From: a virus
Lineage: Duplodnaviria; Heunggongvirae; Uroviricota; Caudoviricetes
Direction: 5' to 3' (one strand)
IMG/VR virus record: IMGVR_UViG_2711768042_000001
Span: 1 to 24,687 of that record
DNA: 24,687 nucleotides
The position numbers and the translations under genes were made by a program. The notes under the pieces are model-generated. The model made no database searches, was not told where the DNA came from, and was given only the letters and a program-made list of their open reading frames with translations. The first letter of the stretch is position 1. Every line of letters begins with the position of its first letter. Positions 1,844 to 24,687 of this stretch are shown piece by piece.

Positions 1844-3315
1844 CAGATACAGTGTTATCTCCTGAAGAGCAGTTGATCGAGGATATTGCAGGGTTTACTC
1901 ACGATCCGCTTGGTTATGCCCTCTATGCGTTCCCGTGGGGGGAAGAGGGGACTGAACTGGCACATGCTACTGGCCCACGTCAGTGGCAGGCTGATGCGTT
2001 CCGAGAGATACGTGATCACCTGCAGAATCCAGAGACGCGCTATCAGCCGCTTATGCTGGCACGCGCTTCTGGTCACGGTATTGGTAAATCCGCATTCATC
2101 TCAATGCTGATCAACTGGGGCATGTCCACTTGCGAGGATTGTAAGGTCGTGGTGACCGCCAACACCGACAACCAGCTACGAACGAAGACCTGGCCGGAAA
2201 TTATCAAGTGGTCGAACCTTGCTATCACGAAAGACTGGTTTACCTGTACCGCTACCGCGATGTACAGCAATGATCCTGGACACGACAAGCGGTGGCGAGC
2301 TGACGCAATCCCCTGGTCTGAGCACAACACTGAGGCATTCGCCGGACTACACAACGAGCGCAAACGCATCATCGTGGTGTTTGATGAAGCGTCGAACATT
2401 GCGGATCTGGTGTGGGAAGTTGCCGAAGGTGCGCTAACGGACGAAGACACTGAGATTATCTGGGTGGCGTTCGGAAACCCGACGCGTAATACCGGACGTT
2501 TCCGTGAATGTTTCCGCAAGTATAAACACCGCTGGAAAACTGCGCAGATTGACAGTCGGACGGTGGAAGGTACCAACAAACAGCAGTTGCAGAAATGGGT
2601 TGATGACTACGGGGAAGACAGCGACTTCGTTAAAATCCGTGTGCGTGGCATATTCCCTGATGCATCTGAATTGCAGTTTATCCCTACCGGTCTTACTGAC
2701 GAGGCAATGAAACGGGTGGTAACCGCTGCGCAGGTTGCACATGCTCCGGTGATAATCGGCGTTGACCCGGCATACTCCGGCGTTGATGACGCTGTGATAT
2801 ACCTGCGGCAGGGGCTACACAGTAAGGTGCTGTGGACTGGCAACAAGACTACCGACGATCTGATTATGGCGAAGCGTATCGCTGACTTTGAAGACCAGTA
2901 TCAGGCTGACGCGGTGTTCATCGACTTCGGTTACGGAACCGGTTTGAAGTCAATCGGTGACGGCTGGGGTCGTACATGGCAACTTGTTCCGTTCGGTGGC
3001 GCGTCTACTGACCCGCAGATGCTTAACAAGCGTGGGGAGATGTTCAACTCATGCAAGACATGGCTGAGGCTCGGCGGCATGCTGGATGACCGGGAAACAG
3101 CGGACGACCTGTCGACGGCAGAGTACAAAGTTCGCGTGGACGGTAAAATCGTTATCGAACCGAAGGAAGATATCAAAGAGCGACTTGGGCGTTCGCCGGG
3201 GAAAGGCGATGCGCTATTGCTGACGTTTGCTTTCCCGGTCTCGAAACGCATAAATATACCAGGACAGCAGAACCAGCAAGGCAAGGCCATCACAGATTAC
3301 GATCCCTATGCTTAA
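1840..3315 (+). CDS. terminase large subunit
   Basis: GTG start at 1840 overlaps terS stop (GTGA). 491 aa with P-loop-like ASGHGIGKSAF and Walker B-like IIVVFDEASNI; size and position typical of TerL. Confidence 0.85.
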   Translation: MTDTVLSPEEQLIEDIAGFTHDPLGYALYAFPWGEEGTELAHATGPRQWQADAFREIRDHLQNPETRYQPLMLARASGHGIGKSAFISMLINWGMSTCEDCKVVVTANTDNQLRTKTWPEIIKWSNLAITKDWFTCTATAMYSNDPGHDKRWRADAIPWSEHNTEAFAGLHNERKRIIVVFDEASNIADLVWEVAEGALTDEDTEIIWVAFGNPTRNTGRFRECFRKYKHRWKTAQIDSRTVEGTNKQQLQKWVDDYGEDSDFVKIRVRGIFPDASELQFIPTGLTDEAMKRVVTAAQVAHAPVIIGVDPAYSGVDDAVIYLRQGLHSKVLWTGNKTTDDLIMAKRIADFEDQYQADAVFIDFGYGTGLKSIGDGWGRTWQLVPFGGASTDPQMLNKRGEMFNSCKTWLRLGGMLDDRETADDLSTAEYKVRVDGKIVIEPKEDIKERLGRSPGKGDALLLTFAFPVSKRINIPGQQNQQGKAITDYDPYA

Positions 3316-3860: not shown

Positions 3861-4023
3861 GAACTGGAAGCAATGAGTTATGCCTTCCGTGGCTGTACTG
3901 GTTTACAGCATGAAGTCATCGCAATGGCGTCCTGCTGTAAAAAGGGCGGTAATAGTCCTTCAAGGGAAACTATCACCGCCAAGCACCTGGAACTTCTGGC
4001 ATCACGGTCCTTAGGCGTGATTC

Positions 4024-4100
4024 TGGCGTGGCATGCAGGATTCGAACCTGCGACCAACCGCTTAGAAGGCGGTTGCTCTGTCCAACTGAGCTAATGCCAC
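4024..4100 (-). tRNA. tRNA-Arg (anticodon UCU, decodes AGA), phage-encoded
   Basis: Reverse complement folds as a canonical cloverleaf: acceptor GTGGCAT/ATGCCAC, D-arm GCTC-AGTTGGACA-GAGC, anticodon arm ACCGC-CTTCTAA-GCGGT (anticodon TCT), T-arm GCAGG-TTCGAATC-CTGC, discriminator G and encoded CCA. Differs from E. coli argU as I recall it (from memory, not a comparison). Confidence 0.9.
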
Positions 4101-4422: not shown

Positions 4423-4437
4423 TTACCTGAAAGGTAA
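4423..4437. promoter_or_regulatory. palindromic motif TTACC-TGAAA-GGTAA (candidate operator), site 1 of 6
   Basis: Exact string; same motif class recurs at 20015, 20601, 22348 (imperfect), 23388, 23768, always intergenic. Confidence 0.4.
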
Positions 4438-4527
4438 TAATTAGTGCGTTAAATGTCAACTATCTACGATAAATAAATCATATGTGGTTAAATTGGTAAT
4501 AATTTAATTTCGTACGGAGTCATTGAT

Positions 4528-8471: not shown

Positions 8472-8909
8472 ATGATCACCGACAAACTGTTGATGTTCTC
8501 CGAAGCACAGGCGGTAACTGATACCGCGGCTTCTACTGACGTAATCGATCTCGGTCCAATTGACGGAAAACGTCGTGATATCGGCGTTGGTTACCCGCTT
8601 GAGTTTTGGGCGCTGGTTAACACAGCCGCCGCGGCAAGCGGTGATGCAACTGTAAACATCCAGTTGCAGACGAGTGAAAATAACAGCTCATGGACCACTA
8701 TTTATGATAGTGGCGCACTGGCAAAGACCGCCCTGACAGCAGGTAAACGAGTTGTTTCTGCAAAGGTGCCTGCCGGTGTTCAGCGATATCTGCGTGTTAA
8801 CTACTCCGTCGCAACTGGCCCACTAACGGCTGGCGAATTCACTGCTGGTATCAGTCTTGATGTTGATGCCAATACGCCGTATCCGATCCGCTCAAAAGTA
8901 ACTGGTTAA
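8472..8909 (+). CDS. putative virion structural protein (capsid decoration/accessory candidate)
   Basis: 145 aa, RBS GGAGAAAGAAG before ATG; beta-rich composition; position after the capsid gene. Confidence 0.45.
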   Translation: MITDKLLMFSEAQAVTDTAASTDVIDLGPIDGKRRDIGVGYPLEFWALVNTAAAASGDATVNIQLQTSENNSSWTTIYDSGALAKTALTAGKRVVSAKVPAGVQRYLRVNYSVATGPLTAGEFTAGISLDVDANTPYPIRSKVTG

Positions 8910-19466: not shown

Positions 19467-19994
19467 TCAATGGCTGTTTATGGCTTCTAAAGAAGCTTCT
19501 GCACTTATCGGCAAAGCAATAGTATCCTTGTTAGATGTGCTATTGCTTTCCAGAACTATGGAAATCCAATCCTCTTGGTTTTCATTAATTGTGCTGACAG
19601 CCATGATAGCATTCAAATCATTTTTATATATTTCTGATCGAATAAGACCTTTCCTGAATAATTTAGTTAAGTTTTCAGCTATCGACATCGCACGAATGCT
19701 AACTTTACTAAGCTCAATTGCGTCACTACCTGCGACTTTGGCGTGTTGAGAAAGAGCCATCAAAGCTATATGTGAAAATGTTTCTTCTTTTGAAAAACCG
19801 TTACTTAAAGACATGAGTGATACACCAGCTCCGTATGGAGTGAGTTTATATCCTGATACATTCAGTGCATGCTCTACAAAGGTAAGATCATCAGTTGTAG
19901 AAACATGCATATCGTTACTTTTTTGTTTTTTTGCAATAAATAAAAAAACAAAATTAATAATCACGATGCCGACGATGATTAAGAAAACTTCCAT
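19467..19994 (-). CDS. membrane-anchored accessory protein (single N-terminal TM); superinfection-exclusion candidate by position
   Basis: ATG 19994 with GAGG 7 nt upstream; N-terminus EVFLIIVGIVIINFVFLFIA is one TM helix; AT-rich; sits directly after the injection gene on the opposite strand, where P22 carries sieA. Confidence 0.6.
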   Translation of the reverse strand: MEVFLIIVGIVIINFVFLFIAKKQKSNDMHVSTTDDLTFVEHALNVSGYKLTPYGAGVSLMSLSNGFSKEETFSHIALMALSQHAKVAGSDAIELSKVSIRAMSIAENLTKLFRKGLIRSEIYKNDLNAIMAVSTINENQEDWISIVLESNSTSNKDTIALPISAEASLEAINSH

Positions 19995-20054: not shown

Positions 20055-20453
20055 TTAAGTGTATACCTCCTGTTGCTCAGTGGTGATTTTACCCGGCAAC
20101 ACCTTTTTAGCTTTGTGCGGGTTAACCACATGGCCTTTAGTCCAGTACTCGTAGAGCACATCGTCACACTCTTCCTGATACTGGATTACCTTGTCGCGGA
20201 TTTCAGGGCGGACTTTGTTAGGGCTGATGCTGTTCAACCAAGCTGCCAATTTTCGTAAAGCCATACAAATCATGGCTTGCACCCCACCGGCAGAAGGTAT
20301 GGTGATTTCCACCATACCCTTCGAGAAGCGTTGAGAAATCTTCTTATGTTGAGATTTCCAGTCTAGCCCCATTCCCTCAACGATAGGTTTCATTGGGGTA
20401 TACGGTTCGCCGTTGTGATTGACAACATAAAGCTCTGCGCCGTGGAATGGCAC
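20055..20453 (-). CDS. antirepressor N-terminal-domain-like protein (P22_AR_N-like), possibly truncated
   Basis: N-terminus FHGAELYVVNHNGEPYTPMKPIVEGMGLDWKSQ...VIQYQEECDDVLYEYWTKG has the style of P22-antirepressor N-domains (from memory). Starts with GTG, no clear SD, only 132 aa, so may be a remnant. Confidence 0.45.
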   Translation of the reverse strand: MPFHGAELYVVNHNGEPYTPMKPIVEGMGLDWKSQHKKISQRFSKGMVEITIPSAGGVQAMICMALRKLAAWLNSISPNKVRPEIRDKVIQYQEECDDVLYEYWTKGHVVNPHKAKKVLPGKITTEQQEVYT

Positions 20454-20590: not shown

Positions 20591-20886
20591 GCGCTTATCA
20601 TTACCTTTGCGGTAAATTTACATTGCATTCCTCTTGTGCCATAGTAATCGGGCACTGGCAAAATCCAGTGTCGGGATTGGTCTCCCGGATTACTAAGTGG
20701 CGCATACCACGCCAGACGTGGTTTTTTTATGCGTATAGCACAGTCATGCCAGAATTATGGTGGGCTGAATGGGGGTCCGAAAGGACGCCGGTACCACTTA
20801 GGCCGGTAAGACCAACTCCGTTCAGTTCACCACCATCTGATTGGTCTCAGCGGTGGTGATGTAATTCGCTAAGTGGAGACGCCATC
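20591..20886 (+). promoter_or_regulatory. structured ~295-nt leader upstream of the AntA-like gene (copy 1 of an inverted pair)
   Basis: About 85-90 percent identical to the reverse complement of 23122-23412; contains TTACC-TTTGC-GGTAA (20601-20615), two stem-loops, an intrinsic terminator, then complementary sites AGACCAA (20809-20815) and TTGGTCT (20841-20847) before the RBS GGAG. Confidence 0.7.
20651..20727 (+). ncRNA. candidate C4-like antisense sRNA, copy 1 (SL1 CACUGG-CAAAAU-CCAGUG; SL2 CGGGA-UUGGUC-UCCCG; terminator CCACG-CCAGA-CGUGG then U7)
   Basis: Three consecutive hairpins ending in a U-run, about 77 nt; SL2 loop UUGGUCU is complementary to AGACCAA in the downstream leader. 5' end not determined. 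Confidence 0.45.
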
Positions 20887-21543
20887 ATGAACGCTCAACT
20901 CATCCCCGTATTCAACGGCACTATATCTAACGAAACAGCCCTACTTTGTAATGCCCGCGATCTGCACGCTTTTTTAGGTGTTAAAAAGGTGTTTGCAGCA
21001 TGGATTACAAATCGCATTTCAGAATACGAATTCATTGAAAATCAAGACTATATTTTGCTTTCCAATTTGGGAAAGCAAACATCTGGTAGAGGCGGCCACA
21101 ACCGCAAAGAGTACCACCTCACCCTTGATACAGCCAAAGAGCTGGCGATGGTCGAGCGTAACGAAAAAGGTCGCCAGATACGACGCTACTTCATTGAATG
21201 CGAGAAACGTTTAAGACAACAAGAAACAAAGGTGGAGAAGGTCTTGTCAGGCTTCATGCCAGCCATTATGGAGGCGATCAAGCTGGAAGACAAAAAAGAA
21301 TACAGCGCCCAACTGAAGCCCGGCTACCGCAGCCTGATTCATTCGCCGTCTGGTGTTCTCGGCCTGACGGAGAACTCACTGCTGATGAATTTGCTGAACC
21401 AGTTACAGGAAGACGGGCATGATGTATCGGGCGCGGCAGCGGAGCTGACCACCATGTTCTGCTACATCGTCGGTGTGAGCAAATGCCTGCGTGATATCCA
21501 GACGCACGCGGAGTACATCAACGACAAGGCAGGGTTCTTCTGA
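20887..21543 (+). CDS. antirepressor, AntA-type N-domain plus shared C-terminal domain
   Basis: ATG with GGAG 8 nt upstream; N-domain ...[16 protein letters not shown]...[30 protein letters not shown] matches the AntA pattern; the C-terminal 80 aa are near-identical to the C-terminus of the 22435..23121 gene. Confidence 0.75.
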
Positions 21544-22409: not shown

Positions 22410-22677
22410 AGGCACATCCCTGTGCCGCCGCCCGTCAGAAGACCCCTGCCTTGTCGTTGATGTATTCCGCGTGGGTCTGGATATCACGCAGGCATTTACT
22501 CACACCGACGATGTAGCAGAACATGGTGGTCAGTTCCGCCGCCGCGCCCGATACGTCGTGCCCGTCTTCCTGTAACTGGTTCAGCAGATTCATCAGCAGT
22601 GAGTTCTCCGTCAGGCCGAGAACACCAGACGGCGAATGAATCAGGCTGCGGTAGCCGAGCTTCAGTGGGGCGCTGTA
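22410..22677. repeat. inverted repeat arm B (antirepressor C-domain coding plus 3' flank)
   Basis: Reverse complement about 94 percent identical to 21301-21568. Confidence 0.8.
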
Positions 22678-23121
22678 GGTTTTGTTCTCTACCTTCATTG
22701 CCTGCATCACTGCTGATGCTGTGGCGCTGGCTACCTGGTCGGCAACCATCTTTATGCGTTCTTCCTGCGGGAGCGAGTTTTTAATGTAACTTCCGGTGCG
22801 GCGGATCTGAGGAAGAACCTCACCTGTAACCCATTTACGAAAGCGGTAGGGGGTAGTGCCTGGTGTCACCGCATCGCGGCAGCGGAGGATCAGTGTGTAG
22901 AGGCCTGACTCGTTGATAATATTGGTTTCGCCTTGACGGCCTAAGTTAAATTTAGCCCTTTCATCATCATCAAGAGATTTTATTGACATAGTGGGGTTTG
23001 TCAGTTGAAGAGCTTTAATAACGTCTTTGGCAACAAACCAAGGATTTCCATCAATAACAATGGCTCGAATGGTTGCTTCTGATTCAAAATGAAAAACAGA
23101 TGGGGTTACGTTAGCAGTCAT
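22435..23121 (-). CDS. antirepressor, Bro-N-type N-domain plus shared C-terminal domain
   Basis: ATG 23121 with AGGTGAT upstream (track ORF extends to 23274 but that N-terminal extension overlaps the conserved leader). Bro-N pattern: IDGNPWFVAKDVIKAL...NESGLYTLILRCR...YRFRKWVTGEVLPQIRRTGSY. Confidence 0.75.
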   Translation of the reverse strand: MTANVTPSVFHFESEATIRAIVIDGNPWFVAKDVIKALQLTNPTMSIKSLDDDERAKFNLGRQGETNIINESGLYTLILRCRDAVTPGTTPYRFRKWVTGEVLPQIRRTGSYIKNSLPQEERIKMVADQVASATASAVMQAMKVENKTYSAPLKLGYRSLIHSPSGVLGLTENSLLMNLLNQLQEDGHDVSGAAAELTTMFCYIVGVSKCLRDIQTHAEYINDKAGVF

Positions 23122-23274
23122 AGCGATCACCTTTGTAGTTAGGTTAATCACCACTACCGACGCCAATCGGTTGGTGGTGAACTGTGCAGGGTTGGCGTAA
23201 CCGGCTACAAAGGACCCGGCGCACCTTTCGGTGCCCCCACACAGCCCACCATAGAATAGGTGCGCTTTACACAT

Positions 23275-23352
23275 AAAAAAACCGCTTATGCGGCATATGT
23301 GCCTCTGTAGTAACTCGGGACGCCAATCCCGGCACTGGATTTTGCCAGTGCC
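23275..23352 (-). ncRNA. candidate C4-like antisense sRNA, copy 2 (SL2 loop UUGGCG; terminator CCGC-AUAA-GCGG then U7)
   Basis: Same three-hairpin architecture as copy 1; loop UUGGCGU is complementary to ACGCCAA (plus 23192-23198, read on minus) in its own leader. Confidence 0.45.
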
Positions 23353-23387
23353 CGATTACTATGGCACAAGAGGAGTGCGATGTAAAT

Positions 23388-23402
23388 TTACCGCAAAGGT
23401 AA
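23388..23402. promoter_or_regulatory. palindromic motif TTACC-GCAAA-GGTAA, site 5 of 6
   Basis: Exact string at the upstream end of leader copy 2, mirroring 20601-20615 in copy 1. Confidence 0.4.
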
Positions 23403-23433: not shown

Positions 23434-23691
23434 TTATCTGGTTTGTTTTCGTAATTGTTCGGCACAATAGTCGAGATGTGTTTGCAGATCCTGCATAGAC
23501 ATCTGTGAGCTGGTGACGTAGTTAATCAGTGCAGTCAGTTCGGCAAGTGGGCCATCGACATTAAATCCATCCTTATCGAGATCCCGGAGTAATTTCATCA
23601 AGTGCGATCCCTCCACCAGTGACCTGACGCCTCCCGGCGTGTGAATCCTTTCGGTAAATCCGTCTTCCAGTGGATAGTGATACTGCTGCAT
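23434..23691 (-). CDS. small protein (about 85 aa) homologous to the antirepressor C-terminal domain only
   Basis: ATG 23691 with GGAG 6 nt upstream (track start 23814 is probably too long because it would cover the LexA box and operator motifs). YHYPLEDGFTERIHTPGGVRSLVEGSHLMKLLRDLDKDGFNVDGPLAELT aligns with [50 protein letters not shown]. Confidence 0.55.
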   Translation of the reverse strand: MQQYHYPLEDGFTERIHTPGGVRSLVEGSHLMKLLRDLDKDGFNVDGPLAELTALINYVTSSQMSMQDLQTHLDYCAEQLRKQTR

Positions 23692-23710
23692 CTTATCTTC
23701 TCCATGCAAT

Positions 23711-23730
23711 AACTGTATATTTATACAGTA
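23711..23730. promoter_or_regulatory. LexA (SOS) box: AACTGTATATTTATACAGTA
   Basis: CTGT-N8-ACAG with an AT-rich spacer, 18 of 20 matches to the E. coli consensus TACTGTATATATATACAGTA; 20-40 nt upstream of the 23691 start on the minus strand. Confidence 0.6.
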
Positions 23731-23767
23731 GCAAATAATTTGTTTGCTATCCAGCACGTTTTGCAAA

Positions 23768-23782
23768 TTACCTGAAAGGTAA
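23768..23782. promoter_or_regulatory. palindromic motif TTACC-TGAAA-GGTAA, site 6 of 6
   Basis: Exact string, identical core to site 1 (4423-4437). Confidence 0.4.
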
Positions 23783-23886
23783 TATCTATTCGTATTTACA
23801 GTCTTTCTATCCATATGTGGTTTTCCAGGTAATAGAATAACCAGATATGCGGCGCAACGGGTGCTGCGACTATCTGGAGATTTAAC

Positions 23887-24687
23887 ATGACGGTCTCAAC
23901 CGAAGTTGACCACAACGAATACACCGGTAACGGCGTTACGACATCGTTTCCGTATACTTTTCGAATTTTCAGAAAATCAGACCTGGTTGTTCAGGTGTCT
24001 GACCTGAACGGAAACGTAACAGAATTGGTTCTGGATACCGGTTATACGGTAACTGGGGCGGGCACTTATAGTGGCGGTTCTGTGGTTCTTCCGTCTCCGC
24101 TTGCTACTGGATGGCGAATTACGATAGATCGTGTGCTTGATGTAGTGCAGGAGACAGACCTTCGCAATCAGGGAAAATTTTTCCCCGAAGTGCATGAAGA
24201 TGCCTTTGACTACCTGACGATGCTGATCCAGCAATGTTTTGGGTGGTTCAGACGTGCATTGATGAAACCATCTTTGCTTGCAAAATATTACGATGCAAAG
24301 CAAAACAAAATTTCTAACCTTGCAGATCCATCATTTGAGCAGGACGCTGTAAATAATCGCTCAATGCGTAATTATGTCGATGCTGCAATCGCCGGGGTTG
24401 TTGGTGGTTTTGGTTGGTTTATTCAGTATGGTTCTGGGGCTGTGTACCGAACGTTCCAGGATAAAATGCGTGATGCTATTAGCCCCAAAGATTTTGGAGC
24501 TGTTGGTGATGGTATAAATGACGATTCCACTGCAATAAGCGCGTGCCTTGAAGCCTCATCTCCAGGTTATAAAATTGACGGATTAGGGCTTACTTTTAAA
24601 GTATCAACTCTTCCGGATGTCAGTCGATTTAAAAATGCTCGTTTTTTATTTGAGAGAATACCGGGCCAGCCTCTTTTTTATGCTTCT
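23887..24687 (+). CDS. tailspike/tail fiber protein, N-terminal part (3' end outside the window)
   Basis: ATG 23887 with GGAGA upstream; open to the window end (267 codons); N-terminus TVSTEVDHNEYTGNGVTTSFPYTF is typical of tailspike adaptor domains, and DFGAVGDGINDDSTAI is the pectate-lyase-type beta-helix entry motif. Missing from the supplied ORF track because it has no stop in the window. Confidence 0.75.
   Translation, partial: MTVSTEVDHNEYTGNGVTTSFPYTFRIFRKSDLVVQVSDLNGNVTELVLDTGYTVTGAGTYSGGSVVLPSPLATGWRITIDRVLDVVQETDLRNQGKFFPEVHEDAFDYLTMLIQQCFGWFRRALMKPSLLAKYYDAKQNKISNLADPSFEQDAVNNRSMRNYVDAAIAGVVGGFGWFIQYGSGAVYRTFQDKMRDAISPKDFGAVGDGINDDSTAISACLEASSPGYKIDGLGLTFKVSTLPDVSRFKNARFLFERIPGQPLFYAS

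Follow-up and report, generated by a model that had tools for sequence, protein, structure and literature searches.

A probable LexA operator in front of an antirepressor gene in a phiV10/epsilon15-like prophage of Escherichia coli

The window, by which we mean the whole stretch of 24,687 nucleotides that was analysed, carries terminase, head and internal virion genes in turn, followed by the beginning of the tailspike gene, whose start is at 23888. It matches phiV10, epsilon15, SPC32H, SPN1S, Tyrion and other members of Uetakevirus, and we take it to be late-region DNA from a Uetakevirus prophage of the phiV10/epsilon15 type. The features considered here are centred on the intergenic region between the tailspike gene and a small divergent gene, ant (Table 1). 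A 20-bp palindrome stands in front of ant, a Rep-type operator motif and a late-promoter-like element lie on the tailspike side of it, and two modules, each composed of isrK, C4 and an antirepressor gene, are found on the other side of ant.

Table 1. Features of the ant locus and of the neighbouring antirepressor modules; positions are those of the window
Feature	Position	Strand	Basis or remark
LexA-type (SOS) box AACTGTATATTTATACAGTA	23711-23730		Weight matrix, consensus match, conservation; the ant-sense strand reads TACTGTATAAATATACAGTT
P_ant candidate -10, TACTGT	23725-23730	minus	Predicted; occupies the left box arm
P_ant candidate extended -10, TGC	23733-23731	minus	Predicted; precedes TACTGT
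P_ant candidate -35, TGGATA	23748-23753	minus	Predicted; 17 nt from the -10
Shine-Dalgarno sequence GGAG	23700-23703	minus	8 nt before the ant ATG; conserved in the eight-phage alignment
ant, 85-aa antirepressor	23434-23691	minus	Ortholog of SPC32H Ant and epsilon15 gp19; phrog_450
Rep-type operator motif ATTACCTGAAAGGTAAT	23767-23783		Matches the epsilon15 'repressor' annotation
Late-promoter-like element CATATGTGGTT-N6-GGTAATAGAAT	23812-23838	plus	Before the tailspike gene (ATG 23888); invariant alignment columns
Separate unit: operator-like site (23388-23402), PisrK-like promoter, isrK	23275-23402	minus	Rfam, promoter and terminator patterns
PisrK-like promoter	-35 TTTACA 23386-23381; -10 CATAGT ending 23358	minus	
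isrK RNA with terminator	23351-23275	minus	Rfam isrK, 74.2 bits
C4 antisense RNA	23256-23170	minus	Rfam C4, 79.5 bits
Bro-N antirepressor gene	22435-23121	minus	Bro-N domain; C-terminal 80 aa homologous to Ant
Second isrK-C4 pair	20652-20837	plus	Before the AntA-type gene; Rfam isrK 65.5 bits, C4 61.2 bits

The palindrome AACTGTATATTTATACAGTA has two mismatches in 20 positions to TACTGTATATATATACAGTA, the LexA consensus of E. coli. The initial annotation, made from the sequence alone, had counted 18 matching positions and a CTGT-N8-ACAG core, which is confirmed. Within the 24.7-kb window this is the only site with three or fewer mismatches to the consensus, and 100 dinucleotide-preserving shuffles of the window produced no such site, which places the palindrome far beyond chance expectation. 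The core itself occurs three times in the window against 0.3 occurrences expected; the other two copies, at 3893 and 8435, have G+C-rich spacers and score poorly.

Scoring with a LexA weight matrix had been proposed as a check, and the matrix used was symmetrised and built from 31 E. coli sites; small errors in it are possible. On this matrix the box reaches 27.4 bits, the top score of the window, against 9.9 bits for the second-best 20-mer. All 31 training sites fall below it (12.0-26.0 bits), and the ideal consensus itself scores 29.1 bits. The placement of the box just upstream of the small minus-strand gene was likewise recovered, with 19 nt separating the end of the box from the ATG at 23691. 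Judged by these properties, the box is a strong LexA-type operator of functional appearance.

The gene behind the box had at first been treated as the small leading member of an operon in which a Bro-N protein was the LexA-controlled antirepressor. Homology points to a different effector. The small gene product is identical to Ant of Salmonella phage SPC32H at 73 of 83 positions (88%) and matches chain E of PDB entry 5D50, 'Anti-repressor protein', with E=4e-47, and the small gene is therefore probably the antirepressor itself. Entry 5D50 is a crystal structure of SPC32H Ant together with the repressor Rep. In the SPC32H record ant is annotated at the homologous place, divergent from the tailspike gene, and the arrangement of box, ant and divergent tailspike is common to SPC32H, epsilon15, phiV10 and others. 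The orthologs in phiV10 (p24) and epsilon15 (gp19) are both labelled hypothetical in their records. The sister prophages of E. coli strains A33 and ExPEC XM, which lie beside guaA, encode an identical Ant (WP_001188252.1).

Family databases say little about this protein. Searches of Pfam and NCBIfam with Ant found no model, a below-threshold Pfam match to DUF724 having been dismissed, and across Pfam, NCBIfam and PHROGs the only matches were phrog_450, phrog_15539 and phrog_1760, with PHROG 450 labelled 'unknown function'. Of 5426 complete E. coli genomes, 529 contain the ant region, and in these the gene goes by the name 'hypothetical protein'.

Conservation of the box was followed in 16 relatives from 11 genera, comprising eight phages (of Escherichia, Salmonella, Enterobacter and Klebsiella) and the genomes of eight species, the latter found in an alignment-based scan for further Ant genes that took one genome per species. 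In all 16, a gap of 18-20 nt separates the box from the ant ATG that follows it. In each of the eight phage loci it is the best match to the matrix, and the alignment of their ant-tailspike intergenic regions shows no change in CTGTAT, the left arm, or in the ACA of the right arm. The spacer is variable and takes the forms ATATTTAT, ATAAATAC, ATAAACAT, ATGCTTAT, ATATATGT and ATATATAT. The final G of ACAG is changed in both Klebsiella phages of this alignment. The eight genome loci, of 2.6 kb each, come from Klebsiella, Kluyvera, Scandinavium, Superficieibacter, two Citrobacter species, Pseudocitrobacter and Candidatus Erwinia dacicola. Their top LexA matches, of 13.8-25.3 bits, start at positions 1162-1164 of the locus, with the ant ATG at 1201, and a subgroup of Klebsiella, Kluyvera and Superficieibacter has ATGT in place of CTGT in one arm.

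Closer to the window, the ant box is the sole strong site in the whole 45-kb locus of a sister prophage, with 27.9 bits against 10.5 bits for the next. When Ant alone was searched against viral contigs, all loci returned were near-identical E. coli copies, and 77 out of 80 of these keep the box; for the remaining three the box is absent from the DNA stretch that was retrieved. Phages SPC32H and SPC32N differ by exactly two bases over a 5.4-kb locus. One of these changes turns CTGT into CTTT in the homologous LexA box, and the other falls in the fifth codon of the tailspike gene. Kim and Ryu reportedly described SPC32N in 2013 as two nucleotides away from SPC32H, with one of the two in a LexA site overlapping the ant promoter, and this LexA-site change is said to make Ant synthesis constitutive.

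A promoter for ant can be proposed in the same place. A strict scan for the sigma-70 consensus found no promoter over the LexA box. In a softer scan, in which five relatives were scored, TGGATA-17-TGnTACTGT was the sole positionally conserved candidate on the ant strand, and it overlaps the box. The exact hexamers, which we infer, are weak, the -10 matching the consensus at 3 of 6 positions with the aid of the TGn extension. The CTGGA core of the -35 is nevertheless invariant in the eight-phage alignment and present in 8 of 8 genome loci, in whose upstream DNA the spacing of the candidate can be read by eye. The ant start site is predicted near 23718, within the box, and this position of the box over P_ant agrees with the overlap of LexA site and ant promoter that is reported for SPC32H. 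Two other combinations were set aside: a -35 TTGCAA (23766-23761) would stand 20 nt from the only conserved -10-like element, and a pair formed by TAGCAA and TATAAA with an 18-nt spacing is possible in the window but lacks conservation among the relatives. We consider it very probable that host LexA uses the box as its operator at the ant promoter of this phiV10/epsilon15-like E. coli prophage.

On the tailspike side of the box, TTACC-N5-GGTAA at 23768-23782 forms the core of ATTACC-N5-GGTAAT, a motif that the epsilon15 record annotates seven times as a 'repressor' site, three of these lying between rep and the leftward early genes. Allowing one mismatch, TTACC-N5-GGTAA occurs eight times in the window against 0.4 expected, and the immunity region of the sister prophage contains eight operator motifs, four of them flanking rep. 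On the plus strand the operator is part of a cassette in which it is followed, after approximately 30-42 nt, by CATATGTGGTT and, after a further 5-6 nt, by GGTAATA. This cassette of operator and promoter-like element recurs before the head operon (4423-4500) and at both epsilon15 counterparts. Repressor control of the late/tailspike promoter is the most likely role of the operator at the ant-tailspike junction.

Layered control of the box region had been suggested from this site and from a second adjacent palindrome, AGCAAA-N7-TTTGCT. TTACC-N5-GGTAA is present and enriched. Layered control through it is possible, but a role at the tailspike promoter is more probable. The second palindrome is also present, but only in the window and in phiV10, and it belongs to a common type: 86 perfect 6-bp inverted repeats with loops of 5-9 nt were counted in the window. 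We have rejected it as a regulatory site because it is unconserved beyond phiV10, lies inside the spacer of the candidate promoter and has so many counterparts.

A form of layered control in which the Rep-type operator would also repress or activate P_ant, and ant would sense both LexA and Rep, is rather unlikely in our view. Operator and box are separated by exactly 52 nt, both in the window and in 8 of 8 species genomes, and given the predicted start site the centre of the operator would fall near -57 of P_ant; this fixed spacing may turn P_ant into a logic gate for LexA and Rep together. The same constancy may, however, merely reflect a compact, conserved divergent region, and the cassette of operator and late promoter also heads the head operon, where ant is absent, which argues for a plus-strand role of the operator. 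Kim and Ryu also reportedly found in 2013 that one mutation of the LexA box suffices for constitutive Ant, and this would argue against strong repression of ant by Rep.

Downstream of ant the picture is one of separate transcription units. In both isrK copies of the window and in the phiV10 copy, TTTACA-17-CATAGT ends 7 nt before the isrK 5' end, these promoter-like sites adjoin an operator-like TTACC-N5-GGTAA, in the window at 23388-23402 and 20601-20615, and each isrK ends with a hairpin and a T-run. The operator at the isrK promoter is found in the Uetakevirus copies and is absent from the one Stx-phage copy examined (2851). The unit that holds the second isrK-C4 pair spans 20601-21543 and ends in an AntA antirepressor gene. 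The Bro-N and AntA proteins have near-identical C-terminal domains, encoded at 22435-22689 and 21289-21543 respectively, that are 40% identical to Ant (E=2e-15 for the Bro-N domain). Phage phiV10 has one isrK-C4-Bro-N module where the window has two modules of this kind, and SPC32H, epsilon15 and BUCT554 keep the box and ant with no Bro-N module.

The initial annotation had joined the small gene, an sRNA leader, the Bro-N gene and a membrane protein gene into one co-oriented operon headed by the box, so that all of them would be under SOS control and Bro-N would be the effector. We regard such an operon as improbable, although some observations do favour it. Every member lies on the minus strand, and the Bro-N protein has an Ant-like C-terminal domain. 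The interval from the ant stop (23434) to isrK shows no terminator pattern, so that transcripts from P_ant can enter isrK. At the homologous Gifsy-1 locus, the antirepressor gene beyond isrK depends on PisrK for its transcription, and only some of the transcripts continue past the isrK terminator into that gene (PMC4825925).

Against this stand the promoter-like site of isrK, correctly placed for its 5' end, and its strong terminator, as well as a further hairpin and operator-like site that precede the gene for the membrane protein (DUF4760). The second module, on the other strand, has the same promoter and no LexA site. The matrix detected no LexA-like site upstream of either isrK module of the window or in the modules of Stx phage 2851 and a Salmonella phage. 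An additional scan, covering the DNA before the second isrK module, before the DUF4760 gene and before the 19467-19994 gene as well as the sister immunity region, found no LexA site either, its best match (13.0 bits, at 8903 of locus L011) lying within the recT coding region. The promoter and terminator belonging to isrK, together with the retention of the box in phages that have no module, indicate that the box controls ant and that the other genes form separate units.

Separate units may still be linked in time. As a tentative and rather improbable extension of the LexA-Ant switch, the switch may feed a cascade in which the Bro-N and AntA fusions form a second stage, derepressed by loss of Rep and gated by RNA. 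SOS would then bring on Ant first, and loss of Rep, together with additional IsrK arising by read-through from ant into isrK, would turn on the Ant-domain fusions. Were this cascade true, it could act as a feed-forward lock on induction or allow cross-induction of co-resident prophages.

The suggestion that the box might instead act on the divergent tailspike (late) promoter is highly improbable. The box does share the intergenic region with that promoter and stands 158 nt from the tailspike ATG, but the late-promoter-like element is some 100 bp from the centre of the box, which makes direct action on the tailspike gene unlikely. No LexA site accompanies the cassette at the head operon, and the distance that is held constant, at 18-20 nt, is that between the box and the ant ATG. 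It is scarcely credible that the box is a chance palindrome without LexA binding, as might arise in A+T-rich intergenic phage DNA with inverted repeats as frequent as those counted above, given the empty shuffles, a score that tops every training site, fixed arms around a variable spacer in 16 relatives and an SPC32N mutation that falls inside the homologous box.

With ant as the target, the following induction switch can be proposed. In the lysogen a LexA dimer on the box would cover the -10 and the start site of the leftward promoter and keep Ant off. DNA damage would activate RecA, LexA would cleave itself, and ant would be transcribed. By orthology with SPC32H, an Ant tetramer would bind Rep and strip it from its ATTACC-N5-GGTAAT operators. 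Rep would be an HTH protein that has no autocleavage domain, and its removal would lead to lytic growth. As a LexA operator puts the antirepressor under SOS control, induction would probably proceed via the antirepressor and not by RecA-mediated cleavage of the repressor. An SOS-derepressed antirepressor was also the route foreseen in the initial annotation; SPC32H orthology favours that mechanism in kind, but neither the gene then named for it (Bro-N) nor the extent of the operon holds.

For this scheme the present analysis contributes the site, its statistical uniqueness and conservation, the orthology of Ant and the Rep orthologs of the sister prophages, while LexA repression of ant and the binding of Rep by Ant come from the SPC32H literature; we infer that the SPC32H events also occur in the E. 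coli prophage. In 2013 Kim and Ryu are said to have found SPC32H ant to be under negative control by LexA, and SPC32H Rep to remain uncleaved during SOS. A review counts SPC32H among several Salmonella prophages in which the SOS response and LexA self-cleavage result in synthesis of an antirepressor, which blocks the repressor through protein-protein contact (PMC7380047), and another names it with phages whose lytic growth is triggered by way of host LexA (PMC9437464). Structural work on SPC32H shows an Ant tetramer engaging two Rep dimers and disrupting the tetramer in which Rep binds DNA (PMC9638917; PMC9986798; bioRxiv 10.1101/2025.11.27.690993).

The repressor gene of the window prophage would lie outside the window, and a Rep ortholog for it is proposed from the sister prophages, whose moron content is different. 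Both A33 and ExPEC XM encode an HTH_3 protein of 194 aa whose identity to SPC32H Rep is 43% (5D50_A, E=3.5e-42) and whose gene has operator motifs on its flanks. A search for a Peptidase_S24 domain gave no match in this protein of either prophage, and a protein with HTH_3 and no Peptidase_S24 fits a non-cleavable repressor. As the E. coli Rep is only 43% identical to that of SPC32H, the Ant-Rep interaction is assumed for the E. coli pair.

The mechanism is already known, being the LexA-Ant-Rep switch of SPC32H, a sister phage species with another host. The likeness to the SPC32H Ant/Rep system (Kim and Ryu 2013, J Virol 87:11775; Kim et al. 2016, PNAS; PDB 5D50, 5D4Z) extends beyond membership of Uetakevirus and the close similarity of Ant to the adjacent Rep-type operator, the position of ant between the virion-protein genes and the tailspike gene, a box 19 nt before the ATG, and the Rep ortholog of the sister E. 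coli prophages. The present system differs in its E. coli host and in the lower identity of the sister-prophage Rep. It differs also in the two isrK-C4-antirepressor modules and other morons that lie downstream of ant in the window, and as a result of these insertions ant no longer stands directly before a terminator. Epsilon15 gp19 and phiV10 p24 are similarly orthologous in gene, box and operator. Their records, by contrast, annotate the gene neither as an antirepressor nor as LexA-regulated, and the sister prophages of the window differ from these phages in having an endosialidase-type tailspike.

The initial annotation had drawn its comparison with 186 Tum and the Gifsy prophages. This is fair as a functional analogy, and SPC32H is the closer, orthologous precedent. 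Kim and Ryu reportedly placed SPC32H Ant in a structurally distinct class. In the Tum-type logic, a small antirepressor gene is kept silent by LexA, and the SOS response sets free an inactivator of a non-cleavable repressor (PMC3121763; PMC7380047). The Tum proteins of 186 and Fels-2, GfoA/GfhA of Gifsy-1/3 and AntC of N15 share this logic with the present locus at the level of function, and belong to other lineages.

The P1 immI locus (c4-icd-ant) and isrK-orf45-anrP of Gifsy-1 resemble the units at 22435-23402 and 20601-21543, with their isrK, C4 and Bro-N or AntA components. These units differ from ant in being RNA-controlled from a promoter of their own with no LexA site, and they would be neighbours of the box and not its target. 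P22 immI (mnt-arc-ant) is alike in that an antirepressor locus of a short-tailed temperate phage immediately precedes the tailspike gene. It differs in that its ant is under Mnt, Arc and sar RNA, not LexA, and in that the c2 repressor is cleavable through RecA (PMC7380047).

What is new here is of value for annotation, in view of the 529 complete E. coli genomes in which ant is called hypothetical. A widespread type of E. coli prophage would use an antirepressor route to SOS induction, and recognising it helps to predict which prophages are induced by DNA-damaging antibiotics. The coupling of the switch to isrK-C4 antirepressor modules and Rep-type operators would be a mildly novel part. As a separate observation, the tailspike of the sister prophages A33 and ExPEC XM is annotated as an endosialidase; the endosialidase of known phages targets the K1 capsule.

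The Rep-type operator motif TTACC-N5-GGTAA, annotated 'repressor' in epsilon15, has eight sites in the window against 0.4 expected. Nearly all transcription units here have one upstream: the terminase, the head operon, the gene at 19467-19994, the two isrK promoters, the DUF4760 gene and the tailspike. Upstream of the head operon and the tailspike, in the E. coli prophage and epsilon15 alike, the operator opens a conserved late-promoter cassette, where it is followed by ~30-42 nt annotated in epsilon15 as an IHF site, then CATATGTGGTT, N5/6 and GGTAATA; the GGTAAT half-site reappears at the -10-like element. In Stx phage 2851 the isrK module lacks the TTACC-N5-GGTAA motif and has a promoter different from those of the window copies, and because of this the operator seems to have been acquired within the Uetakevirus context. 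The tailspike 5' leader also carries a conserved G+C-rich, hairpin-like segment, GCGGCGCAACGGGTGCTGC, directly 5' of the Shine-Dalgarno sequence, with its GCGC...GGGCGC core kept in seven of eight relatives.

Features of the window and of epsilon15 discussed in the text
Feature	Positions	Strand
TTACC-N5-GGTAA sites	1215, 1233, 4423, 20015, 20601, 22348, 23388, 23768	
Late-promoter cassettes, window	4423-4500; 23768-23838	
Late-promoter cassettes, epsilon15 (L009)	2931-3010; 19895-19990	
isrK-C4-antirepressor module, Bro-N type	22435-23402	-
isrK-C4-antirepressor module, AntA type	20601-21543	+
279-aa ORF	22435-23274	-
132-aa ORF	20055-20453	-
Tailspike-leader segment	23849-23867	+
tRNA gene	4027-4100	-

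The two isrK-C4-antirepressor modules are convergent, and their antirepressors have unlike N-terminal domains (Bro-N vs AntA) and C-terminal ~80 aa nearly identical to each other. This C-terminal stretch is 40% identical to full-length Ant in both proteins, so the prophage encodes three Ant-domain proteins. Within the Bro-N module, the 279-aa ORF is an in-frame fusion of the Bro-N gene with the upstream ORF, the orf45 equivalent, which overlaps C4; a comparable fusion of 287 aa was noted in Shigella dysenteriae (PMC4825925). Divergent from the second isrK module, the 132-aa ORF contains a P22_AR_N domain and nothing else. P22_AR_N is the N-terminal domain of P22 Ant, and the ORF looks like an antirepressor fragment, either truncated or stand-alone.

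Between E. coli and SPC32H, Ant retains 88% identity and Rep only 43% (46/97 for its N-terminal half and 36/93 for its C-terminal half), an asymmetry that is unexpected for a binding pair. At five Ant loci from Klebsiella, Kluyvera and Superficieibacter (L005, L006, L095, L096 and L098) ATGT replaces CTGT in one arm of the LexA box, giving ATATGTATATATATACAGTA, which scores 13.8-19 bits with the weight matrix. Such a box may act as a weakened LexA operator or reflect a shifted -10, and the ATGT arm might make induction leakier or differently tuned in this subgroup.

Among 5426 complete E. coli genomes, 529 carry the ant region, annotated in every case as 'hypothetical protein'. The two sister prophages examined (L010 and L014) have their integration site between guaA and yfgI and encode endosialidase-type tailspikes, with different moron sets in the stretch from ant to the gene for the internal virion protein. 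The tRNA gene flanked by the terminase and portal genes in the late region is annotated as tRNA-Arg in sister prophages.
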